The notes under the pieces were generated by a model, which was given only the letters and a program-made list of their open reading frames with translations, was not told where the DNA came from and did not search any database. From Lingula anatina (lineage: Eukaryota > Animalia > Brachiopoda), in NCBI GenBank assembly GCA_051362555.1, contig JBPQGU010000015.1:1-50000 (forward strand): a stretch of 50,000 nucleotides of DNA, read 5' to 3'. Position numbers and translations under genes: made by a program. Positions 1 to 17,750 of this stretch are shown here, piece after piece. Every line of letters begins with the position of its first letter. Positions within the stretch are counted from its first letter, which is position 1.

Positions 1-321
1 AAATTTTTGATTAAATTGATAGCTGGAGTACCAGTTTTTGAGTGATGTGATACTACTACTAGCACTGGTACAAGAAGCACACCAGCTCCCCCTATTTACA
101 TTTTAATTACCCCCAAATCACACAATCAGACAATTATTGTTTATTGGACACTTGTTCTTTGTGGTACAAGTTTTGGTACCTCATGTGGATATGCCTTAGA
201 AAAGAGACATCAACATGATACAAAGTATGTGTGACGTGAAAAATATGAGAAATTAACATCCATGTCACATAATTTCCATTTAAGATAAAATAGAAGGTTG
301 AAACATTCATCAAACACTCAC

Positions 322-358
322 CAGAGTGGACATCTTTCACTGCAAGCAGAACAAACCC
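322..358 (-). CDS. 37-nt micro-exon continuing the TPR repeat (GFVLLAVKDVHS)
   Basis: Acceptor tttcag and donor G|GTGAGT. It joins in phase 0 to give NRARCHLSQ-GFVLLAVKDVHS, matching the TPR helix-B pattern G....A..D. Further exons were not resolved and the gene probably continues beyond the left edge. Confidence 0.7.
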
Positions 359-361
359 CTG

Positions 362-362
362 A

Positions 363-416
<54 letters not shown>
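362..416. repeat. (AAT)n microsatellite abutting the micro-exon acceptor
   Basis: About 17 AAT units seen directly. Confidence 0.95.
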
Positions 417-417
<1 letters not shown>

Positions 418-919
418 GATTAAAGAAGCATTCTTAAATGTATCAGACTGCCTTTGTAGATAAGATAAGTAATATATCCAGTTAACACTTTGACACTGCC
501 CTGTTTTAACAAAGTAACATTTGTCTCGACATAGTTATCAACAGATAAAGACTGTACTTTGACCCTATTAACTGAAATATAAGTAGGCATGATGGATCTA
601 AGCTGATATGAATGAATAATGAAAGTAAAAAATATATATATTAAAGACAAAATAAGCTCAAAAAAATAAATGCTCCAATTGGCTAAAAAAAAAACAAACA
701 AATGAATCACAAAAAATTACATAACTGATTTAATTTTTAAGGTGTTGGTTGTATTTAACCCTTCCCTTCTGTGGGTTCAAATTTAGAAACTTGTTTGCAA
801 ACTTTTTACCTTCACATGAACATTATCAAAGTCTAAATAAAACTTACAGTTTGCATAAATTACTAAGTCTGGATAAATTTTAGAAGGTAAAAAGAATGCA
901 TTGGTAAGAATATAGTTAC

Positions 920-1117
920 CTGGGAAAGATGACACCTTGCTCTGTTACAAAAAAGTCTACAAGCCAAGCTTGGGTCTCCTAAAGGGGGCACGCAATAAAT
1001 CAATTTGTTAAAAACATCAGTTGCCTCCTGCCAACATCCTTTTTCCATATATTTCTCTCCTTTCAGAATGGATTCCCTCAAACCTGTGCCCTGTTGTTGC
1101 TGTGCTCTACTAGCCTC
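920..1117 (-). CDS. Internal exon encoding a TPR-like helical repeat
   Basis: Acceptor T9-CAG (1118-1129) and donor CAG|GTAACT bound 198 nt, exactly 66 codons, phase 0/0. The peptide KGEKYMEKGCWQEATDVFNKLI...LFCNRARCHLSQ fits the TPR pattern (G..A...F; NRA.C.L). Confidence 0.8.
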
Positions 1118-1368
1118 CTGAAAAAAAAACTGCAAGATGAAACTCAAACAAATTTATAATTTTAACTCTTTTACATTTCATCAAGCATTAAAACCAAATA
1201 TTATATGCTTAACAGAACTTATTAATACTAATAACAGTAATGACTGTATAAATAATTACATAGTATTAGTAAATTTGTAAAAAAACAATCAGATATATAC
1301 CCAAATATAAAAGACATCAATGCTAAAAATGTCATAAAAACCTTCATATGATCGTCACTCTGACTTAC

Positions 1369-1617
1369 TGTTTTCCTAGGTTGTTTTCCGTCACTGTGTT
1401 CAGGCTGATACATAGGAGGTCCTGGGTTCATCTCAACATCTCCAGACAAAAAGAGCAGCAGGGATATCATCATCATTATCACCAGCAGAATACACCCCCC
1501 TAACTCATCACTTATTGCTTTCTGAAGATTTGGCAGAGTTCCAGATGGAGCTGCCCGAATTTTGCGATGTGCAAAGCATCCTATTCTAAGCCTCCATGCA
1601 TCTAGTGATATTCCCAT
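1369..1617 (-). CDS. First coding exon of a TPR-repeat protein gene, encoding a 66-aa leader ending in a 2A-like StopGo motif (GDVEMNPG|P) plus the start of the downstream product
   Basis: Acceptor ttacag precedes the exon start at 1646, and the ATG at 1617 has an in-frame TAG just upstream. Translation is MGISLDAWRLRIGCF...CILLVIMMMISLLLFLSGDVEMNPGPPMYQ...RKT. A consensus phase-0 donor ACA|GTAAGT follows 1369, with an alternative phase-0 donor AAG|GTTTTT after 1342. Confidence 0.8.
1417..1440 (-). other. 2A-like (StopGo) ribosome-skipping motif DVEMNPG|P
   Basis: Exact match to D(V/I)ExNPG|P, preceded by LLFLSG, similar to FMDV 2A LLKLAGDVESNPGP. The predicted skip lies between nt 1420 and 1419. 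Confidence 0.85.
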
Positions 1618-1970
1618 AGTGCTCTATATATTGTTTAGTTCAGCACCTGTAACATTAAATATTAAATTGGGAATCGATCACAGAGTCACAGTGGTGTTTT
1701 TTGACACAAACACAAATACCCTTGTAAATGAATTAAGTGTTTCAAATTGACATTAATACAGTACAACGTATATACCTTTTCAAATCATCAAAATTCTATC
1801 AGATTTTTTTCTGTTTTTTTTTAAAGAACATTGTCTGTACGTGGGACTTTTTTCATAATGGGCGTGAGCTTCCGTTTAATTTTTTATTTCCCGTCTAAAA
1901 CGATCAATGTGCTCTATTGTTTAACCTGCAATTTAGTTTCGTTTTGCTAAACAGTCAAAATCTCTCTTAC

Positions 1971-2095
1971 CTGGTGAATCTTTTTAAATAAAAATTGGTC
2001 CTTGGTGGTTGGTAGGACAGCTAGACAGCGGCATTAAATGAAGCGTAGACGTAACAAATCGTAACAGCCCTATCGTCTGGTTGACAAAACGAAAG
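1971..2095 (-). other. Putative 5' non-coding first exon of the 2A-TPR gene, containing a 16-codon uORF (2034-1984)
   Basis: Strong donor CAG|GTAAGA at 1971/1970, adjacent to the promoter motifs. The TSS position is approximate. Confidence 0.55.
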
Positions 2096-2099
2096 TTGG

Positions 2100-2310
2100 A
2101 AAAACCTATGACGTCATACCGGAAGCTAGTGCTGGTGCTCGGCGAATGTGCACGGATAACTTAAGAAAGAGAACCAAAGCTAATATATACCACTATTAAA
2201 ATATTTATGTTAAGATTCAGTCCTGAAATTTTGAAATTTAAACATATAATAACTTTGGCAAAGTACTTGAATGGTACTTTCTCCTCTTTGCCGTTAGGGG
2301 GCAGTGTCTT
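2100..2310. promoter_or_regulatory. Putative bidirectional promoter with a full CRE, an adjacent ETS site and a CTCF-like site
   Basis: TATGACGTCATA 12-bp palindrome (2107-2118), ACCGGAAG (2118-2125) and CCGTTAGGGGGCAG (2291-2304). Outward-facing splice donors lie at 1970 (-) and 2408 (+), and CpG is locally enriched. Confidence 0.6.
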
Positions 2311-2407
2311 CGGCAACTCTCGCCAAGAACTCTGGGAAATCTCGTTGCCTCCTCGGACATGTTGTGATTTGTCAATCAGCTGAGTAAAATGAGGGTCATG
2401 TTTACAG
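2310..2407 (+). other. Putative non-coding first exon of the plus-strand gene
   Basis: Donor CAG|GTAAAG at 2407/2408 and a candidate acceptor ttgcag at 4031 upstream of the ATG at 4103. The start is approximate. Confidence 0.4.
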
Positions 2408-3131
2408 GTAAAGTCGCAATTTATGGACTATATACACCTCTGTGGTTGTAACCTAGCAGAATGACATCAACTGCGTTTAGTACTGAAAAACTCTAAATTT
2501 AATCGGATTATTGATGAGATGTAGGATGTTTCATGTATTTATTTTTCATCGGCATTCGCTTACCCGTTTCCATAATATTTGTGGTTCTCAATGTTTACAT
2601 TTTTGTTCGCCTGCCTTTCCTATTAATAGTGAGTGGGAGGCTGTTGTCCATAGGATTTATAAGGACAGTTTTGTAGTAAATGATTTATATGTGTGAGAGA
2701 TCAGTGAAATGTTAATCCCCTTTCAAATAACCGGTATTTTAGATGAGGTAGTAAAAAATATTTAGATTCACTCGTACATGTATGTAGATGAGGCAGGCGC
2801 CAGAGATTTTTATAAATTCTGACACGCACAGTTTTCAAGTGTAAGAAACCTTAATAAACCCTTGTTGGACTATTTTCATATCATGTTAGGTACATGTGAT
2901 ATGTGCATAGACATGGTCTTGAGAATTGAGTTCGAGTCTTTTCAGGCAAAGTGCTACAATTAGTGTACTAACATCCTTTCTGCTAATTGGTGGATACAGT
3001 CGCCGCCTTTTTCTTCTAAATTTGGTTGGTATGGGTCTTTAGTGATTATCCAGTTGTGTTTAAATGCATTTATTCCTGGCACTGATAAGATTGACTTTGG
3101 GAGACTGGCCCACATATACAGCCTTTTGATG

Positions 3132-3256
3132 CACAGTCTGCGACGTTGACCACTGGCCCGACTGCCAATGCCAGTAAAAATTGGACCAGGCCAGTGACAT
3201 TTCTGAAAAATGGTCAGTTACTGGCCTGCCTGGGCCAGTGGATTTTTTCAGCTGTG
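3132..3256. mobile_element. Possible small intronic MITE-like repeat
   Basis: GC-richer island with imperfect inverted termini CACAGTCTG...CAGCTGTG and several internal CTGGCC/GGCCAG motifs. No clear TSD. Confidence 0.35.
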
Positions 3257-4102
3257 ATATGCACTCCAATTCCTTTTATAAATGCTCATAGTAGATGTTG
3301 AAGTCGTTTTTCTTTAATAACCAGTTGAACATCCCATGTTTTATTTTTATTTCTAAAAGGAAGCCTGTTTAATCTCAAGGTGTTAATTTCAGTTTTTTGT
3401 TTTTTTTTAATTAAATTTAATTTAATTAGACCTGGGCCAATGAATTTGATAAGTACTTGTAAGTTTATCACCTGAGTGTGTTATACATGTATTTAATTGG
3501 CACATTTGGGATGAAGACATCCAATTTGTTGTTATTCCATGCACATATTATTTTGATTAAGTTATACATAGTGTGTGTAAAAAGATAAAATGTCTGAGAT
3601 ATCAATCTATTCAATCAGGGATAATATTTTTCTGACTATTGGCCAATTTCTGACTTCTTGGGAGCCAATAATATAATTAGACAAGGTTTCTGTCTTGATA
3701 TCATGCCATATTTTCCAACTTTTTTGCTAAATGGCAGTCTCGCTATTCCTGTTCAATGTACTGTATTTTTATCTTAGGGAGTTCAACCCCCTTGATAATG
3801 GCTGATCTCACTGAGAAGTCATACTACCTAGTACCAAGTGTTAAGCTTGGGTTTATGCTGTTTTTTCATATAACCAGTAACTTGAATTGTGATTACTCTT
3901 CATTGGAGTTGTGAAACTAAATGGATATCAATTCATGATGGGAGTTCCTGACATATTCTTAAGTTTCCAGCTAACATCTAAATATTTGCATAATAAGAAT
4001 TCTATAAACAGTATTAATATTTATATTGCAGGTAACAGGGAATGAAATAAACGATGGCACTGACAATGACATCAACAGTAAGGTGACACATTTGGCATCA
4101 AA

Positions 4103-5092
4103 ATGACCGCCATCACAGCCAACATTGCATCCCAGAAAAGTTGTTATTGTTGCCAAACTTCACCATCATTAAGAGCACTGTCTTCATCATCTTCATCCTC
4201 ATCAACAAGGGATCCCAATAGAAACATGGACGTTGACGCTGCATTACATGAGTTAGGCATGCTCAGTTCAGTCACAGACGGGCGCAGGCAGTTTCTTCGT
4301 GAGCGCTCACGCACTCGGAGCGAGCAAGGCACCAGTTTCACAGTGGGCGGAGGCAGTTTGTGTGGCACGGGGGACACAGATATTGAAAATAACTACAGTC
4401 CTGGAAAGACTCCTTTCCAGATCATTTCTATGAATCCCAGCTATGTCACATCTTTTACCAATACCCCTACTCCTCTTCCAGAGACTGCTAGTGTTAACGT
4501 GATATCCACTCGTGGCTACCTTAACATGCAAACTGCTGAAATAGCGGATAATATGAATAACTTAAGTCTGGGGTCCAATTATCACCGTCAGCGCAGCCCT
4601 AGGGATGAGCATCATAACACTCGACTCATGAGACTTAAAATGGCGCGTTTGCGGCGCTGGAGGAAACCTTACGAAGTGCCATGGAGGTCGTCACTGGAGT
4701 TTGGAGGTTTGTCTAGTGGCTTTAGCCGAGGCAGTGGCTTAACATGTAGTCCGTCTAGTTCATGTAGCAGTACAACTGGTACAAACTCTAATGGAAACTG
4801 CCAGACGCCAACGAGAGAAGGACCGTCTTGTGGCAGTGATGGGGATGTTGATAAAGACGGGAAGCCAGGGATGAAGAGATGCGCCTCTAATTCAAACACC
4901 CCAGAGAAACTGAAGCAGGCGATCAGTCACCTTCCAACAGGGTTGACCTTTCATAGGTCACGTTCCATGGATGACTTGGACATTAAAAAATTTCCATCGG
5001 CTCAAGCGGAGAATTTAAACTACATGCTAGAAAAACGAGAGATTGATAGTATGTCACAGCATTTGAGTGACTTGAAGGTTGATGCTGAATAG
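4103..5092 (+). CDS. Uncharacterised Ser/Thr-rich, probably disordered protein, 329 aa, single coding exon
   Basis: Uninterrupted 990-nt ORF with clearly higher GC than its flanks, an acceptor about 70 nt upstream and an AT-rich 3' UTR-like region downstream. Short motifs include RERSRTRSE, LKMARLRRWRKPY and RSRSMDDL. I do not recognise the family. Confidence 0.8.
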   Translation: MTAITANIASQKSCYCCQTSPSLRALSSSSSSSSTRDPNRNMDVDAALHELGMLSSVTDGRRQFLRERSRTRSEQGTSFTVGGGSLCGTGDTDIENNYSPGKTPFQIISMNPSYVTSFTNTPTPLPETASVNVISTRGYLNMQTAEIADNMNNLSLGSNYHRQRSPRDEHHNTRLMRLKMARLRRWRKPYEVPWRSSLEFGGLSSGFSRGSGLTCSPSSSCSSTTGTNSNGNCQTPTREGPSCGSDGDVDKDGKPGMKRCASNSNTPEKLKQAISHLPTGLTFHRSRSMDDLDIKKFPSAQAENLNYMLEKREIDSMSQHLSDLKVDAE

Positions 5093-5796
5093 CACTTTGT
5101 TATTGCACTGGAGTTATTTTGAAGCTTTGTTAGGGGTTCAGTTTAGAAGACAAAAAGGAATTAAATTTTCTATGATTTTGCCATGAATATCACAATTAGT
5201 CTACTACTGAAAACTCTGATTTATCCCACTGTCGGGCAAGATTTAACAGAATGGCTTCACTGGCATTTCTGTTTAACTGTTGCACTACTAACTTGCATAA
5301 AGTTTGTAACTGAAAAATCAGAAATAATTTTGTCTTTAGGAACTTAACAAGCAAGCACTTATTTTTCAATTAGAAGAAGAATTGAAGCCTTATAAAGCAA
5401 AAGAAAAACCTTGATTCTTTTTAATTGCAGCCTTTTATATCTTCAGTTAAACTTTATTACAGTATAAAGTCAGTGGCTTTAGTTTATCATATGGTGACAT
5501 GTATATCAAAAACTTTTACCAAATCTTTATGAATTATACCGTTATCTTGGATATTATATTCAAATTATACACTTAATAGTCATCACATAAATTTAATCCT
5601 TATTAATATGGAGCTGCAGATCATGATCTTTATATAAATACTTCGGGTATATTTTCTGACCTGCATTTATAGTGGATTTTTGGAAATTATTTGAAATAAA
5701 GGTGTGAAACATTTCTCTAACAAACCTATGGCCTCGGAGTTTCTGAAAATACAGAAGTAGAGATGTAATGTGACTGTGGTGATATATGCATTATTT

Positions 5797-5798
<2 letters not shown>

Positions 5799-5846
<48 letters not shown>
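5799..5846. repeat. Poly-T tract of about 48 nt
   Basis: Seen directly. Confidence 0.95.
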
Positions 5847-5847
<1 letters not shown>

Positions 5848-6769
5848 TGAAATGCGAGTGCTTTCTCTCTGTTTGTATGTATGGCAAGTAATGCACTGCC
5901 ACCCTCAGCCTCATGATTAATGCCTTGAACAACTTTCATTAGTGGCCTATGTACTTGGGTATATATCGCTCAGAATTAAGAATTTTTAAATGAAATAATA
6001 CTTGCTCTTAAAAGATCTTTCAAATCAAGTTTTTGAACAAAAGTCATTAACTTAAAAATTTGTAAAACATGACTCCTTGGATGAGAGGATGTGTGATTAG
6101 TGTCCTTAATGCTTACTCCAAATAACAAAAAACCTAGTATTATGCAAACATCCTAAAGCTCAACTTGCAAGACCTGTGTCAGTTTCTTTTGAATTCCCCT
6201 ACCCCTTCCTCTGTCTCTTTTCTGTTTTGATTTTTTATGTACAGACACATCTTGTCTGTACATATGACCAACCTGCGTCTGTTGTCGCTGTCGTTGTTGC
6301 CAAACTTAAAGATACAGGACAAGATCTAAAATCAGCATGATCAGATTATTTTTTCAAAGGTAATACAGTTTTTTCACTTTTTTTCAGCATAAATGAAATT
6401 AAGATAACATATGTAAAGGAAAAACAGTCAGCATACTGGTTCAAACTTACAGGTTTGTTCAATATTCATAAAGTACAGGTGAAGTTTGAATATCAACATA
6501 ATCAAACCATTTTTCTTGAAGTTATGCCATTTTTTTGTTTGTTTTTTGTTTTTTTTTTTCATCATGATATATTATACTTTCTGCAATACAGAACACATTT
6601 CATAGAAACTCATTTGACCTCTTGTTTTCAAACTTACAGGCCTGATGAATATGACTTATGTGGAATACAAAAACTAGGTTGATCTGAATATTTACCTTCA
6701 AGTTATTAGTTTTCTTTTTCAAAATATTCATTTTTCACATATTGGTATTTTCATTATGAGACTTGGAAC

Positions 6770-12032: not shown

Positions 12033-13662
12033 AATAATAATAATAATAATTTATTGAGCACTAAAATGTTTCAGTACATTTTGCAAGCCCTCTAAACTAC
12101 TTGTATATAGATACATTTAGTACAATCTAGACCTATTATCACAATAAAAATAAATAAATAAATAATAATAATGATAATAAGATAAAAAAATACCTATATT
12201 ACATAATGACAATTACATTGCTCTGTATTGTGGTAGACTTGCTCATTATTATTGACAGGCTAGTCTTTTTTTAAATGTTTGTTGGATGAAGTGACACACG
12301 GTTTTTAGGGAGTGTTCACTTTGAGGATTGAGAAGCCAGGCAAGTTTTTCTAAATCAGATGACATTTGCGGCGGTATCATTTTTATCATTTTTTCTCTTT
12401 CGTTCACATGCTCATTACATTTTAGTAGGAAATGCACTTCTGTTTCAACATCATTGCAATGTGGACATATTCGGTTTTCTACTGGTTTTTTTGGGTTTTG
12501 TGTAGCGACCTCTTTCAATTTCTAGGTCATGGTCGCTGATTCGAAATTTCGCAAGTGTTTTTATTTCATTTAGAGGGACTTTCATTGTGAGATAATTTTC
12601 TGGAGTGTAGGATTTCTTTATTGCTTTATAGGTTCTTAGTTTGCTTTTATTGTCACTGTGCAGATCGGTCCAAAAAAGTTCTTCAATTTTTTTAATAACA
12701 TTTACTTGAAGTAAGTTTGGGTCTACAGTGTTTAGATCTGTTGACAGTCCCCAGAGGTCTATAAAAGTTTTTAGAGAGCTTGACCAGCTAGGCCCTTTTA
12801 AATGGATTTCTCTTTCATAGATTTGTTTCACGATTCTATTTGGAGCAAGTTCTTTGAAACGAATTTGGTACTTAAAAACATGTTTTGCAATATCTGTGTA
12901 GAGTGGCAGCCTTCCAAGTTCTGCCCTACTTGCATTGTTGCTTGCATATTTCCGTACACCAAGAGCCCACTTACACGTTTTTAGATGGAGCTGCTCAAAA
13001 GGCATTTTATTAATTTTTTGGAGGGAGATTTTCTTATCTTTAAATAGTTCCTCTGCCCAAACTTCACAACCATAGAGTAAGATTGGCTTGACGGTTTTAT
13101 CAAAGAGTTTCATGTATAGTAGGGGAGAAGATATTTGGTGTGAAGAAAGTGCTGTTTTCAGTGCAAAAGATGCTTTCATTGCATTTTGTTTCAGGTTTTC
13201 AATTGCTTTTTTTAAAGACCCTGTGTTTGTGAAGGTTATTCCTAAGTATGTGAAGTTCTTCACAGATTCTATGATTTTGTTATTTATATAGAAGTTAATA
13301 TTCTTGTCTAGTTTCCCTTGTTTGTTAAAGATGACAACTTTTGACTTTTTCTCATTTACCTGAAGCTTCCATTTTCTGCAATATGTTTGAAGTGCTAATA
13401 AGTGGCCTTGTAGTCCTTCCTTGCTAGTTGATAACAGGACAAGGTCATCTGCATAGAGGATGTGGTTTAGGCCATCAATTGAGCAGTCCTTATTTTTGTT
13501 CTTTAAGATTTCTTTGATATCATCAATGAACACATTAAAGAGGGTAGGACTCAGATTATCCCCTTGTCTGATTCCTATCCTTGATATAAAAGGCTTTGTG
13601 TACCCTTCCCCAACAGAGATGCCTAATCTGGTGTTACTGTACATTGTTTTAATGATGCTGCA
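12033..13662 (-). mobile_element. 5'-truncated LINE (non-LTR retrotransposon, tentatively RTE-X-like): RT C-terminal half, CCHC finger, 3' UTR and (TTA)n tail
   Basis: ORF 12451-13644 contains GIRQGDNLSPTLF, LYADD, YLG and RISDHDLEIERGRY. ORF 12249-12518 contains CPHC..ETEVHFLLKC after one frameshift. AATAAA and a (TTA)n tail lie at about 12033-12055, and a candidate TSD ATTTAT occurs at 12027-12032 and 13663-13668. Confidence 0.92.
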
Positions 13663-16600
13663 ATTTATGCCCAGTAAAAATTCTTGGAAATAGGCTTATT
13701 TAGATTTAATTGGTAAGCCTCGATCCTAGCTACAGCTTTTCAAATTTATAGGGCCTATTTTAAATATAATATCGATGAGTTACAATGAAAGTTATATATG
13801 AAAATTTTATGGGGGGGGGGGGGGGGAGGGAGGGGGTAATGATGCAGGGAAGCAACGATGCGGGAAAGTAACGATTCGGAGGAGTATTGGTGTCGTGGAG
13901 TGACGGTGCGCGTACAACAGTAATTTTAGGGGGTACGTTTCGATGAGGGAATCTATCGGTGTGGGGTCGTATCGATGCGAAAATTAAAAAAAAAATCAAG
14001 CAAATGCTCTCAAGGCACTATTTTCCCTCAAAACAGGTGGGACTGTACTCAAATAGGGCTAAAAATCACGTTTTGATAGATACAATCAACAGTACCGGTA
14101 AGTCTTTAAAGAAAAATATCCAACCCCCCATTTTTAGTATTTTTTCGCATTAGGATTATTTATTAAAGCGTACGTGTATTCATCGCGATCTATTTTGTAA
14201 ATAATTTTAGTCTGGATTATGCTTGGATTGATCCTTGTCACTGTTTGGCAACTCGCCTTTAATGAATGCTGATCGACAGACAAACTTAGAGTTCTTCTTT
14301 AAAGAACACTATCTAACCCCTTTGCCTTGTGGCATAATGTCTTTATAAAGGTAATTTATGTAGTGTGAAGGGGGTGACTACCCTGGCAATACGGAAATCT
14401 AGAACCTAGGGTAAGGGTGACTTGCCTCACTTAAAAAGGGAATCGATCTTCATGCTGGTTGGAGCTGAACTGATGCTAACTAACTTTGTACAAATAAGGT
14501 TTTAATTATTTTAAAGAATTTTTGACATTATTGAACATTGCATATGAAAAGTTTTGATACGATTAAAATAATGGGTAATAAAGATCATGGGTTACTATTT
14601 AGCTCTGGCGTTAACTTCGTCTTGCGATATAAATGAATAAATGTTGCAAATTAAACTTTATTATAGTGTACTGTGTATGTGTTATACGACGACGTTAACT
14701 ACTTCTCCCCCAAGCCCCCCCCCCCCCCCCCCCCCCCCCATAGCATGTTTCTTTTCATATCGAAATGTTTTCAAGGCGTGGCAAAGAATCCCATCAACTG
14801 TTTTATTACTCATTCATTGTAGCAGCATGTTTTAAAATATTAAAACAAATTCATTTTTATAGGTACACATATTAATCGATAAAAAAATATAAACATTCAC
14901 CTTATTTCCTCGGTGTTGAGTTTTGTGGCAGTAATGTTTCAAAGAATTATGTAAGTATGCACGATGGAAGGCGCATGCACAATATTTGTGGAATAAAATA
15001 GTGAATTTTAACAGCAAGCGGAACTCAGTAAAATCTACAGGTACATTAGGGGCGGGTCCAGGTTTTTTTGAAGGGGGGGGGGGGGGCGTTTACTTTTTAC
15101 GGATTGACAGGCTTCGGATTGCGAGGCCGACCCTCACCCCGTTGGCGTTATGTTCGGGGCATGCTCATAGGCGCCGAAAAAATGGGGGTTTATTACGGCA
15201 AATGCATTTAACCAAGAACATTCATGAACACTTTCAACCACATTCCCTCGCCTGAAATGAACCATACCTGACTGAAATTTGCATAACAATAACTTGCTCG
15301 TCGTAGTGCGAGCTGTTTTTCCGAATACTCACTCGGCAGTAGGACACAGCAGGGTGAAGACGCAACATCTGTGGTGCAGTCGCAAGGTCGAGCTTTTGTG
15401 AGGCGTAGAAGCAAATGCATGTTTCGTAAGTATCACTTTTTCTTCAGTAGCGTATGTCAGTTGATAAAAAGAGAGTAGAAGAATGCAAGGAAATTTATGA
15501 AAAGTATTTACTGGTGTGTTACTACTCTTTGTTATATTTTGCCTGTCGTTTCTGTTATGACACTCAAAATATTATTAAGCAAATTACTAAATGGGCATAC
15601 CACCACAAAGATCACGGACTTATTTAGATGAAAATACCGAACTTGCCACTGTTCCGAACTTTTGATCCAAAGACAAGCGTGCCCCATCAACGTGTACATC
15701 AATTTTATTCAAACGTCTCATTTTACGACAATCTCGCTAGTTCAAAATTTTTAAATCAGTATTTGTAGGTTTGTTTACCTCATTTTACATGTACCTGTAA
15801 AATGTTTGTAAGCAGTGTTGAAATACGGGATAATGATTTAAACTAAAGCTCAGTATGGCTTGATGCAAAGCTATTTTAGATATTACAACATTATATAGTG
15901 GGTAAAATAAATAAACGTCCGTAGTGATGACCGCCACAAATTAGAGGAGTATTTTCAATATTTATTTTTTCAAAGATATCTGAAATATCTTTTTTTACTA
16001 ACTTCAGGTCTTAATTTTGGTATTAGGCAACTTAGATATCGATTGCTTTTTTGATGTTCTATCTAAGCCTGAACTTTGGACAAGTCGGTAAACACCCTTC
16101 TCATTTCAAGTCCCTCTTCTCTTAGATGTAAAATGCATTGGTCGTATCTTCCGAGCCTGCCCGTTTAGTCAGATATTGTTAACGTTATCTTCTCATTTCA
16201 GAAGTCCACTGAGATACTGAGAACTGCACGACACCCGCCTGCTAGCAACCAAGCCTTCCTTTCATGGTCTGGAGCACTTCACACATCCGTGCATCTTTTG
16301 TTTTAAAATTGAATAAATACGCTTGTAATTTCTTGTTTTCTTTTCACTTCGGTTTGAAATAATGATAAAGATATTGGCAATAATAGAGGGTTAGGGGTAA
16401 AATTATAAAGATATGATTATTGTCTGAGCACTTTCAAATTAAATCTGCTTAAACTGATTTGTAAGCATTGTTTGGGATTGATGATTTCTACAGTCACAGA
16501 AGATGTCTTAAAAGATTTAAAAGTTTTGTTAATATGCCCAATATTTTGTAAATAATTGAGTTTGAGCATTTTAAGAATACATCTACAGGATTTTCCAATA

Positions 16601-17214: not shown

Positions 17215-17750
17215 AAGAATGGTCTCGGCCCACCTGTCACCCCTTAAATTAAATGGTGTCGCCCAACCTGTCACCCCTCACATTAAATGGACTCGCCCCA
17301 CCTGTCACCCCTCAAATGTAAAATGGACTCGCCCCACCTGTCACCCCTCTTATGTAAAATGGACTCGACCCACCTGTCACCCCTCAATTGGAAAATGGAC
17401 TCGCCCCACCTGTCACCCCTCAAAAGTAAAATGGACTCGCCCCACTTGTCACCCCTCAAATGTAAAATGGACTCGCCCCACCTGTCACCCCTCTAATGTA
17501 AAATGGACTCGCCCCACCTGTCACCCCTCTAATGTAAAATGGACTCGCCCCACCTGTCACCCCTCAAAAGTAAAATGGACTCGCCCCACCTGTCACCCCT
17601 CATAGGTAAAATGGACTCGCCCCACCTGTCACCCCTCAAAGGTAAAATGGACTCGCCCCACCTGTCACCCCTCAAAAGTAAAATGGACTCGCCCCACCTG
17701 TCACCCCTCAAATGTAAAATGGACTCGCCCCACCTGTCACCCCTCAAATC
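17215..17750. repeat. 36-bp minisatellite, about 15 copies (AAAATGGACTCGCCCCACCTGTCACCCCTCAAATGT)
   Basis: Period of 36 seen directly (ATG at 17287, 17323 and so on). The first two copies are degenerate. Confidence 0.97.

Follow-up and report, generated by a model that had tools for sequence, protein, structure and literature searches.

We found that a 50,000-nt stretch of DNA from the brachiopod Lingula anatina (hereafter the window) encodes an expressed exon of a TPR gene that carries a two-part leader, and we consider it somewhat probable (roughly 55%) that this leader was captured from a transposon and attenuates translation of the protein downstream. The leader is an open reading frame of exactly 67 codons on the minus strand (window 1617-1417; the initial annotation gave no strand, and the plus strand is interrupted by stops), running from the Met of MGISLDAWRLRIGCF to Pro67 of a 2A core, D-V-E-M-N-P-G/P. 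The gene provides one clean spliced example of such a leader, and a published screen has already assigned an activity class to its 2A. The features are as follows:

1971..2075, minus strand: non-coding first exon (5′ end approximate), from read depth and joints to 1646 in RNA runs X2 and X3, with a donor GT at 1970
1369..1646, minus strand: first coding exon, comprising 29 nt of 5′ UTR, the leader, the 2A and the following codons; acceptor AG at 1648-1647 and phase-0 donor GTAAGT at 1368
1573..1617, minus strand: N-terminal motif, codons 1-15, pattern M-G-[IV]-x4-[WY]-R-x-x-I-G-x-F
1447..1503, minus strand: hydrophobic stretch (residues 39-57) serving as the helix upstream of the 2A core, from hydropathy and a predicted helix
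1417..1440, minus strand: canonical 2A/StopGo core with a predicted skip/release site between Gly66 and Pro67; class A in the supplement of PMC12338488
920..1117, minus strand: second coding exon, 66 codons, TPR-like; joint 1117/1369 in reads
322..358, minus strand: third coding exon, 37 nt, in which the TPR continues, from read depth and from reads in X2, X3 and X8 with loose ends at 322

The initial annotation had described the motif, followed by a hydrophobic stretch and a 2A, for ORFs of some invertebrate non-LTR retrotransposons. The leader ORF has this layout: the 19-residue stretch at residues 39-57 had a mean Kyte-Doolittle hydropathy of 2.83 and the canonical core ended at Pro67. As in class A 2A/StopGo elements, the core D[VI]ExNPG/P lies in an open frame with a hydrophobic helical stretch upstream. 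A scan of all six frames located D[VI]ExNPGP only once in the 50-kb window, in the leader ORF, and mononucleotide shuffling of the first 21 kb yielded no core in 200 rounds. AlphaFold2 modeling of the exon product (43-row alignment) predicted two helices, a short one at residues 5-13 in the N-terminal motif and a second at residues 29-57, with a pTM of 0.34, at which their packing is not reliable. No Pfam family matched the leader, an Atlas search with residues 1-68 gave no match above 0.79, and Rfam gave none in window 1-21600.

Splice signals and RNA reads placed the whole leader and its 2A within one exon (1646-1369), as had been proposed, with 15 more codons past residue 68. Coding begins in this exon, which is nevertheless the second of the transcript, since a non-coding exon ending at 1971 precedes it. 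The leader exon is joined in frame to the TPR exon across a 251-nt intron with GT-AG borders on the minus strand, and this joint was present in six of seven distinct RNA runs, in 21 reads altogether (X1, 6; X2, 2; X3, 8; X4, 0; X7, counted once, 1; X8, 2; X9, 2). We assigned the transcript to the minus strand because stranded runs showed an orientation opposite to that of the plus-strand neighbor. Because it is transcribed and forms part of a spliced host mRNA, the exon is not the untranscribed intronic transposon relic that the initial annotation had raised as a possibility. Expression of the leader gene was low, at about one tenth of the neighboring gene's reads. A 16-codon uORF starts at an upstream ATG of the non-coding exon (window 2034, minus strand) and is a possible second brake on translation. 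The RNA runs, which share one species label, fell into two groups (X7-X9 and X1-X4) separated by many fixed differences, the likeness of their reads to the window being mostly 95-100% and mostly 90-99% in the two groups.

Together, exons 1117-920 and 358-322 code for a TPR-like region, which matched Pfam TPR_2 only weakly (E 0.036, below the cut-off) and Atlas TPR clusters at 0.94 for the TPR exon; a PDB search with that exon returned nothing under E 0.2. The third coding exon adjoins the second in the database models P0002/P0003, this joint being absent from the read tables listed, and it splices onward to exons outside the window, so that the gene runs past the window's left end. The loose ends at 322, read by hand, led to two alternative downstream exons: one remains open and in frame for ten codons (X2, X8), while the other reads Val-Arg-stop (X3), ending that isoform two codons after exon 3, in agreement with the end of the shorter database model. 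The nearest named protein is the uncharacterized LOC106167800 of Lingula anatina (NCBI name; 93% over the exon), whose database models have only 163-174 residues and probably miss a longer product, because X2 and X8 reads continue without a stop past exon 3.

Of 109 candidates in a homologue search that used just the leader exon as query, the Lingula protein was the sole match; with the TPR part as query, 35 candidates of 306-2000 residues yielded no orthologue, a null result of little weight. The leader recurs in a second Lingula protein, XP_013414704.1 (TPRs plus a helicase domain), which keeps 13 of the first 15 residues and has a spacer twice as long. The TPRs of the window gene and the second Lingula gene gave a local alignment score of 52, which was reached in none of 1000 shuffles for the first 180 residues past the 2A and in two of 1000 for the rest of the protein. 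BLASTP produced no alignment between the TPRs of P0003 and those of P0015, which local alignment weakly aligned. The two genes may be paralogues, although TPRs resemble one another generically.

The same leader was found on transposon proteins. A phmmer search with the leader against 1.84 billion representatives returned 17 matches, 14 of which (the Lingula protein included) have the motif and the core by eye or by pattern. A 13-row profile then yielded 114 longer proteins out of 7996 candidates scored; the strict pattern MG[IV]x4[WY]RxxIGxF formed the N-terminus in 29 of these, and a looser motif accompanied the 2A core in 80, which bears out the proposal that transposon ORFs share the motif. 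Under a slightly wider pattern applied to P0004-P0133, 98 proteins qualified, and 84 of them have at least 60 residues past the 2A. Clustering divided these 84 into 26 of APE/RT ORF2 type, 25 of ORF1 type and eight with death, NACHT and ankyrin domains, along with two groups of three, two of two and 15 singletons. The two LINE clusters together (51/84) are the commonest carriers of the leader. An endonuclease or RT Pfam family was present in 25 of the 26 ORF2-cluster proteins. The ORF1 cluster was named from loci in which an ORF2 comes next and from a profile built on 25 ORF1-like hits picked by hand (22 belonging to that cluster), which matched human L1 ORF1p structures at E 2.8e-15. At loci L004 and L039, an ORF1 with a 2A is followed by an ORF2. 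Helitron-type leader proteins occurred among the singletons (P0065 and P0023), P0023 being so read by us from its DUF6570 and tegument-type protease domain. A tick protein curated as a LINE ORF1p in the supplement of PMC13405545 also opens with the strict motif.

The leader's layout was consistent across the 98 proteins. The motif directly follows the start Met in 82 of them, W or Y occupies position 7 or 8 in 82, and 93 leaders reach a hydropathy of at least 1.6. Spacing from the motif to the 2A glycine is 51 in the window leader and ranged from 37 to 301 in the 98 proteins, never falling below 37, a floor that may partly stem from a search profile built on leaders of about 58-97 residues. 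Codons varied synonymously over 32 leader loci, with all synonymous codons used, and the constraint therefore acts on the protein; given this codon usage and the lack of an Rfam match, we rejected the idea that the motif acts at the RNA level. Nor did the loci compared support a viral source for the leader as a whole, in that the motif lay upstream of the core in none of 64 viral loci as against 32 of 80 metagenome loci, both sets of 2A loci having been ranked by likeness to the window leader.

In combining the motif with a 2A, the window leader matches the 5′ leaders of LINE ORF1 and ORF2 proteins. The initial annotation had gone further in suggesting that it may be an exapted LINE ORF1 N-terminus. 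A transposon-type leader is borne out by these data, but the assignment to ORF1 specifically is not, as ORF2 proteins carry the leader as often and Helitron-type proteins carry it too. Arg11, which the window leader shares, is found in all 24 ORF1 leaders and in 11 of 26 ORF2 leaders, and a position-weight test placed the window leader nearer ORF1 by 2.2 bits, with a leave-one-out performance (21/24 ORF1, 15/26 ORF2) that makes it a poor classifier. No ORF1 or APE/RT body follows the leader: in window 1-6000, 116 downstream queries matched only the 2A itself. The leader exon is not part of a LINE copy at present. Among the leader-bearing sequences, L001 1424-4756 and P0115 are frames of about 1100 codons that lack introns and an RT, begin with the leader and end in a Spin/Ssty domain. 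The frames of P0006, P0072 and P0084 end in Gly-Lys a few residues past the 2A, an ending that would be the expected signature if a splice donor directly follows.

It had also been proposed that the same cassette is fused to other host genes, and we found carriers in unrelated families: NACHT/death/ankyrin proteins of NLR type (the eight in one cluster), BIR-RING, TPR-helicase and Mab-21-linked proteins. The BIR-RING (IAP) carrier is a zebra-mussel protein and one of the singletons, and a targeted search of the PMC13405545 supplement located the motif on sponge death/ankyrin and urchin NLR-type proteins. From their domain content, and in what is a non-random sample, we read the host carriers as mostly immune-type genes.

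The Mab-21/cGAS-like carriers belong to one gene family of another animal, represented by eight metagenome loci from two assemblies (L002, L003, L005, L008, L009, L011, L012 and L014). In more distant pairs of this family, DNA likeness near the leader is limited to about 210-270 bases from the start codon, and four of the eight loci have a phase-0 GTAAGT donor 270 bases past the start. A Mab-21/cGAS-like plus TPR frame lies 1.5-2.3 kb downstream on the same strand in L002, L008 and L009, that of L008 matching Mab-21_C at E 1.4e-09 with a phase-0 acceptor at its head; the other five loci end 0.2-1.8 kb past the leader. The leader is thus likely to be an exon of its own in this family as well, as judged from these predicted splice sites. 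Pairwise pN/pS among the eight leader copies was 0.17 for the motif, 0.54 for the spacer and 0.09 for the 2A block, computed over non-independent pairs, some possibly alleles, and without multiple-hit correction. These values point to strong purifying selection on the motif and the 2A.

In the window gene, the read differences listed for the leader exon comprised seven synonymous and ten non-synonymous changes (of at least 17; p 0.076), those listed within codons 1-68 being six and six (p 0.05, uncorrected). In residues 1-15 and 52-67, all four listed differences were synonymous, three of them in the N-terminal motif. No indel was listed in the leader exon, and the frame was intact in reads 90-95% alike. 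From the listed variants, pN/pS was 0.43 for the leader exon and 0.46 for the TPR exon, neither being significant; the synonymous excess is marginal and may reflect weak purifying selection. Residue 51 differs between alleles: Ile in the window, Met in the published tested allele and Thr in other reads.

The reference allele of the window 2A, one base different, was placed in the class "Falloff Only, Reduced Protein Levels" by a pooled reporter screen (PMC13405545), whose classes come from an SVM on pooled scores for 20-mers without the motif in a heterologous reporter and whose authors state that single calls need individual confirmation. Its supplement assigns the 2A of the second Lingula gene to skipping with reduced protein. 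The published class, in which the upstream peptide is released, little downstream product is made and the protein level falls, would make the reference allele a case of falloff only, as opposed to classical skip-and-continue.

We envisage that the ribosome would pause at Gly66, that most ribosomes would then drop off, and that a minority would resume at Pro67 or read through, leaving little TPR protein. The ribosome exit tunnel accommodates about 30-40 residues. Because the motif precedes the 2A glycine by at least 37 residues, it could lie exposed outside the tunnel while the ribosome pauses. A host factor might recognize it there and tip the balance toward drop-off, decay or restart. The proposed role has an analogy, without sequence relation, in the autoregulation of tubulin, where TTC5 recognizes the MREC/MREI motif, which is tied to the start Met, on its emergence from the ribosome; we know of no reader for the N-terminal motif of the leader. 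Capture may have begun with a transposon 5′ end landing behind a host promoter, after which this end would have gained a splice donor past the 2A and the transposon body would have been lost.

Two other accounts of what the leader does must be set against attenuation. The leader might serve dual targeting, with the unskipped product held at the membrane by a signal anchor, the skipped product cytosolic and control of protein level secondary. Such targeting has been demonstrated for a 26-residue sea-urchin NLR 2A (PMC4981915), and a hydropathy of 2.83 over 19 residues with basic residues upstream, together with the 93 of 98 leaders reaching 1.6 or more, would suit it. Yet the urchin leaders are N-terminal and 26 residues long, whereas the hydrophobic segment here begins only at residue 39, and the published reporter class is falloff with reduced protein. 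Moreover, ORF1p and RT proteins, whose work is done in the cytosol and nucleus, begin with the same leader. We consider dual targeting unlikely. The leader could otherwise be a transposon 5′ end turned exon that contributes a start codon only and has no regulatory role, in a gene that is maybe a short or decaying paralogue. Expression at about one tenth of the neighbor's, the short database models, the isoform that stops two codons after exon 3 and the non-significant pN/pS of both exons are compatible with this; however, the frame is intact with no listed indel, X2 and X8 contain an in-frame downstream exon, two Lingula genes that have diverged elsewhere both keep an intact canonical 2A and the motif, and the Mab-21-linked family is under strong constraint. 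A leader with no role strikes us as distinctly improbable.

The direction of movement can also be turned around. If the leader were an old regulatory module of animal immune genes that transposons picked up, or if movement went both ways, its presence in host genes of sponges, urchins, mussels and brachiopods would be explained, as would a paralogous relationship between the window gene and the second Lingula gene, for which the TPR score of 52 could speak. Against this, the host carriers are unrelated and lineage-restricted, which would require repeated movement, and transposons offer a mechanism for it; transposons are also the commonest carriers, and within known host families only a minority of proteins have a 2A (for urchin NLRs, 14 of 87). 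A host origin appears quite unlikely to us. The transposon-to-host direction that we favor rests on parsimony.

That 2As occur in LINEs and in some host genes is already known (PMC3708506, PMC3894237, PMC4981915). Like the 2As of APE-type non-LTR retrotransposons (Odon et al., 2013, PMC3708506; Luke et al., PMC3894237), whose cores lie about 40-80 residues from the N-terminus and for which down-regulation of the downstream protein has been proposed, the window leader has its core close behind the start, at 67, but what follows here is a spliced host TPR protein. The main-text parts of those papers that were covered do not describe a conserved N-terminal motif. In Strongylocentrotus purpuratus, the signal-2A of NLRs (Roulston et al., 2016, PMC4981915) is likewise an N-terminal hydrophobic 2A of a cellular gene, but it comprises 26 residues predicted to be a signal peptide, whereas the window leader has 67 residues with its hydrophobic part at 39-57 and a separate motif, and belongs to a TPR gene; in length and layout it differs from the urchin type.

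A library of leucine-rich eukaryotic "reduction" peptides (preprint PMC13405545) includes the reference allele of the window 2A, covers the same classes of carrier (ORF1p, ORF2p, death-domain and ankyrin proteins) and leads its authors to propose the same attenuation; unlike our analysis, it considers 20-mers only and keeps host and transposon cases as separate clusters, and its main text makes no mention of a leader, an exon, exaptation, co-option or a conserved motif. Rao et al. (2025, PMC12338488) also catalog the window peptide among class A 2As, with its origin entered as Host and its activity as N/A in their supplement; that entry lacks the gene context given here.

In the literature searched, with most subscription journals, theses and Repbase outside its scope, we found no description of the N-terminal motif, the leader exon or a 2A on cGAS-like genes. 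The two-part leader as an exon-sized module shared across transposon classes and unrelated host genes appears to be undescribed in the searchable literature. A thesis on cellular 2A sequences from the laboratory of the 2013 and 2016 papers reportedly may overlap in part with the leader findings.

PMC4981915 declines to link cellular 2As with retrotransposon 2As, and it and PMC3894237 regard independent origins of 2A as plausible, a view that concerns the core and not the N-terminal motif. In papers on cellular 2As, the question of where they come from is regarded as beyond answer, since so short a core could have arisen repeatedly. The 15-residue motif, which travels with the core across LINE ORF1, ORF2, Helitron-type and unrelated host genes, can serve as a marker of common descent, and the question of 2A origin thereby becomes testable. 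The motif is also a candidate functional part that 20-residue reporter screens have left out, and its distribution suggests that invertebrate immune genes acquired translational control repeatedly in this way. A bolder version of our reading, which we regard as doubtful, is that the leader would be a two-part recoding device distinct from viral 2A, with a tag that a host factor reads during the pause; LINEs and Helitrons would stay quiet with it, and invertebrates would have repeatedly bolted it onto innate-immune genes (NLR, cGAS-like, IAP and TPR-helicase). If so, relief of a block on transposon or viral translation would release the immune proteins too, and the exon would act as a tripwire.

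Several other features of the window were recorded. The neighboring gene (window 2341-2408 and 4030-5400, plus strand) is arranged head-to-head with the leader gene, about 270 bases from its start, has a 1624-nt intron with GT-AG borders and drew about tenfold more reads than the leader gene; its frame at 4082-5092 (336 codons) matched no Pfam family. A LINE reverse-transcriptase fragment at 12451-13695 on the minus strand (RVT_1, E 7.9e-22) has no 2A core nearby, and we rejected a link with the leader, given its distance of 11 kb and its weak likeness to leader-bearing ORF2s (five hits, none under E 1e-15). A minisatellite with a 36-bp unit in about 15 copies occupies 17218-17749, and a strand-skewed satellite array of 79.6 copies of a 362-bp unit with 99% matches extends from 21185 to 50000 and accounts for a run of 82-codon frames. 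Two short read-covered stretches, 3600-3780 and 685-718, have unrelated loose ends on either side and are probably interspersed repeats expressed from elsewhere.
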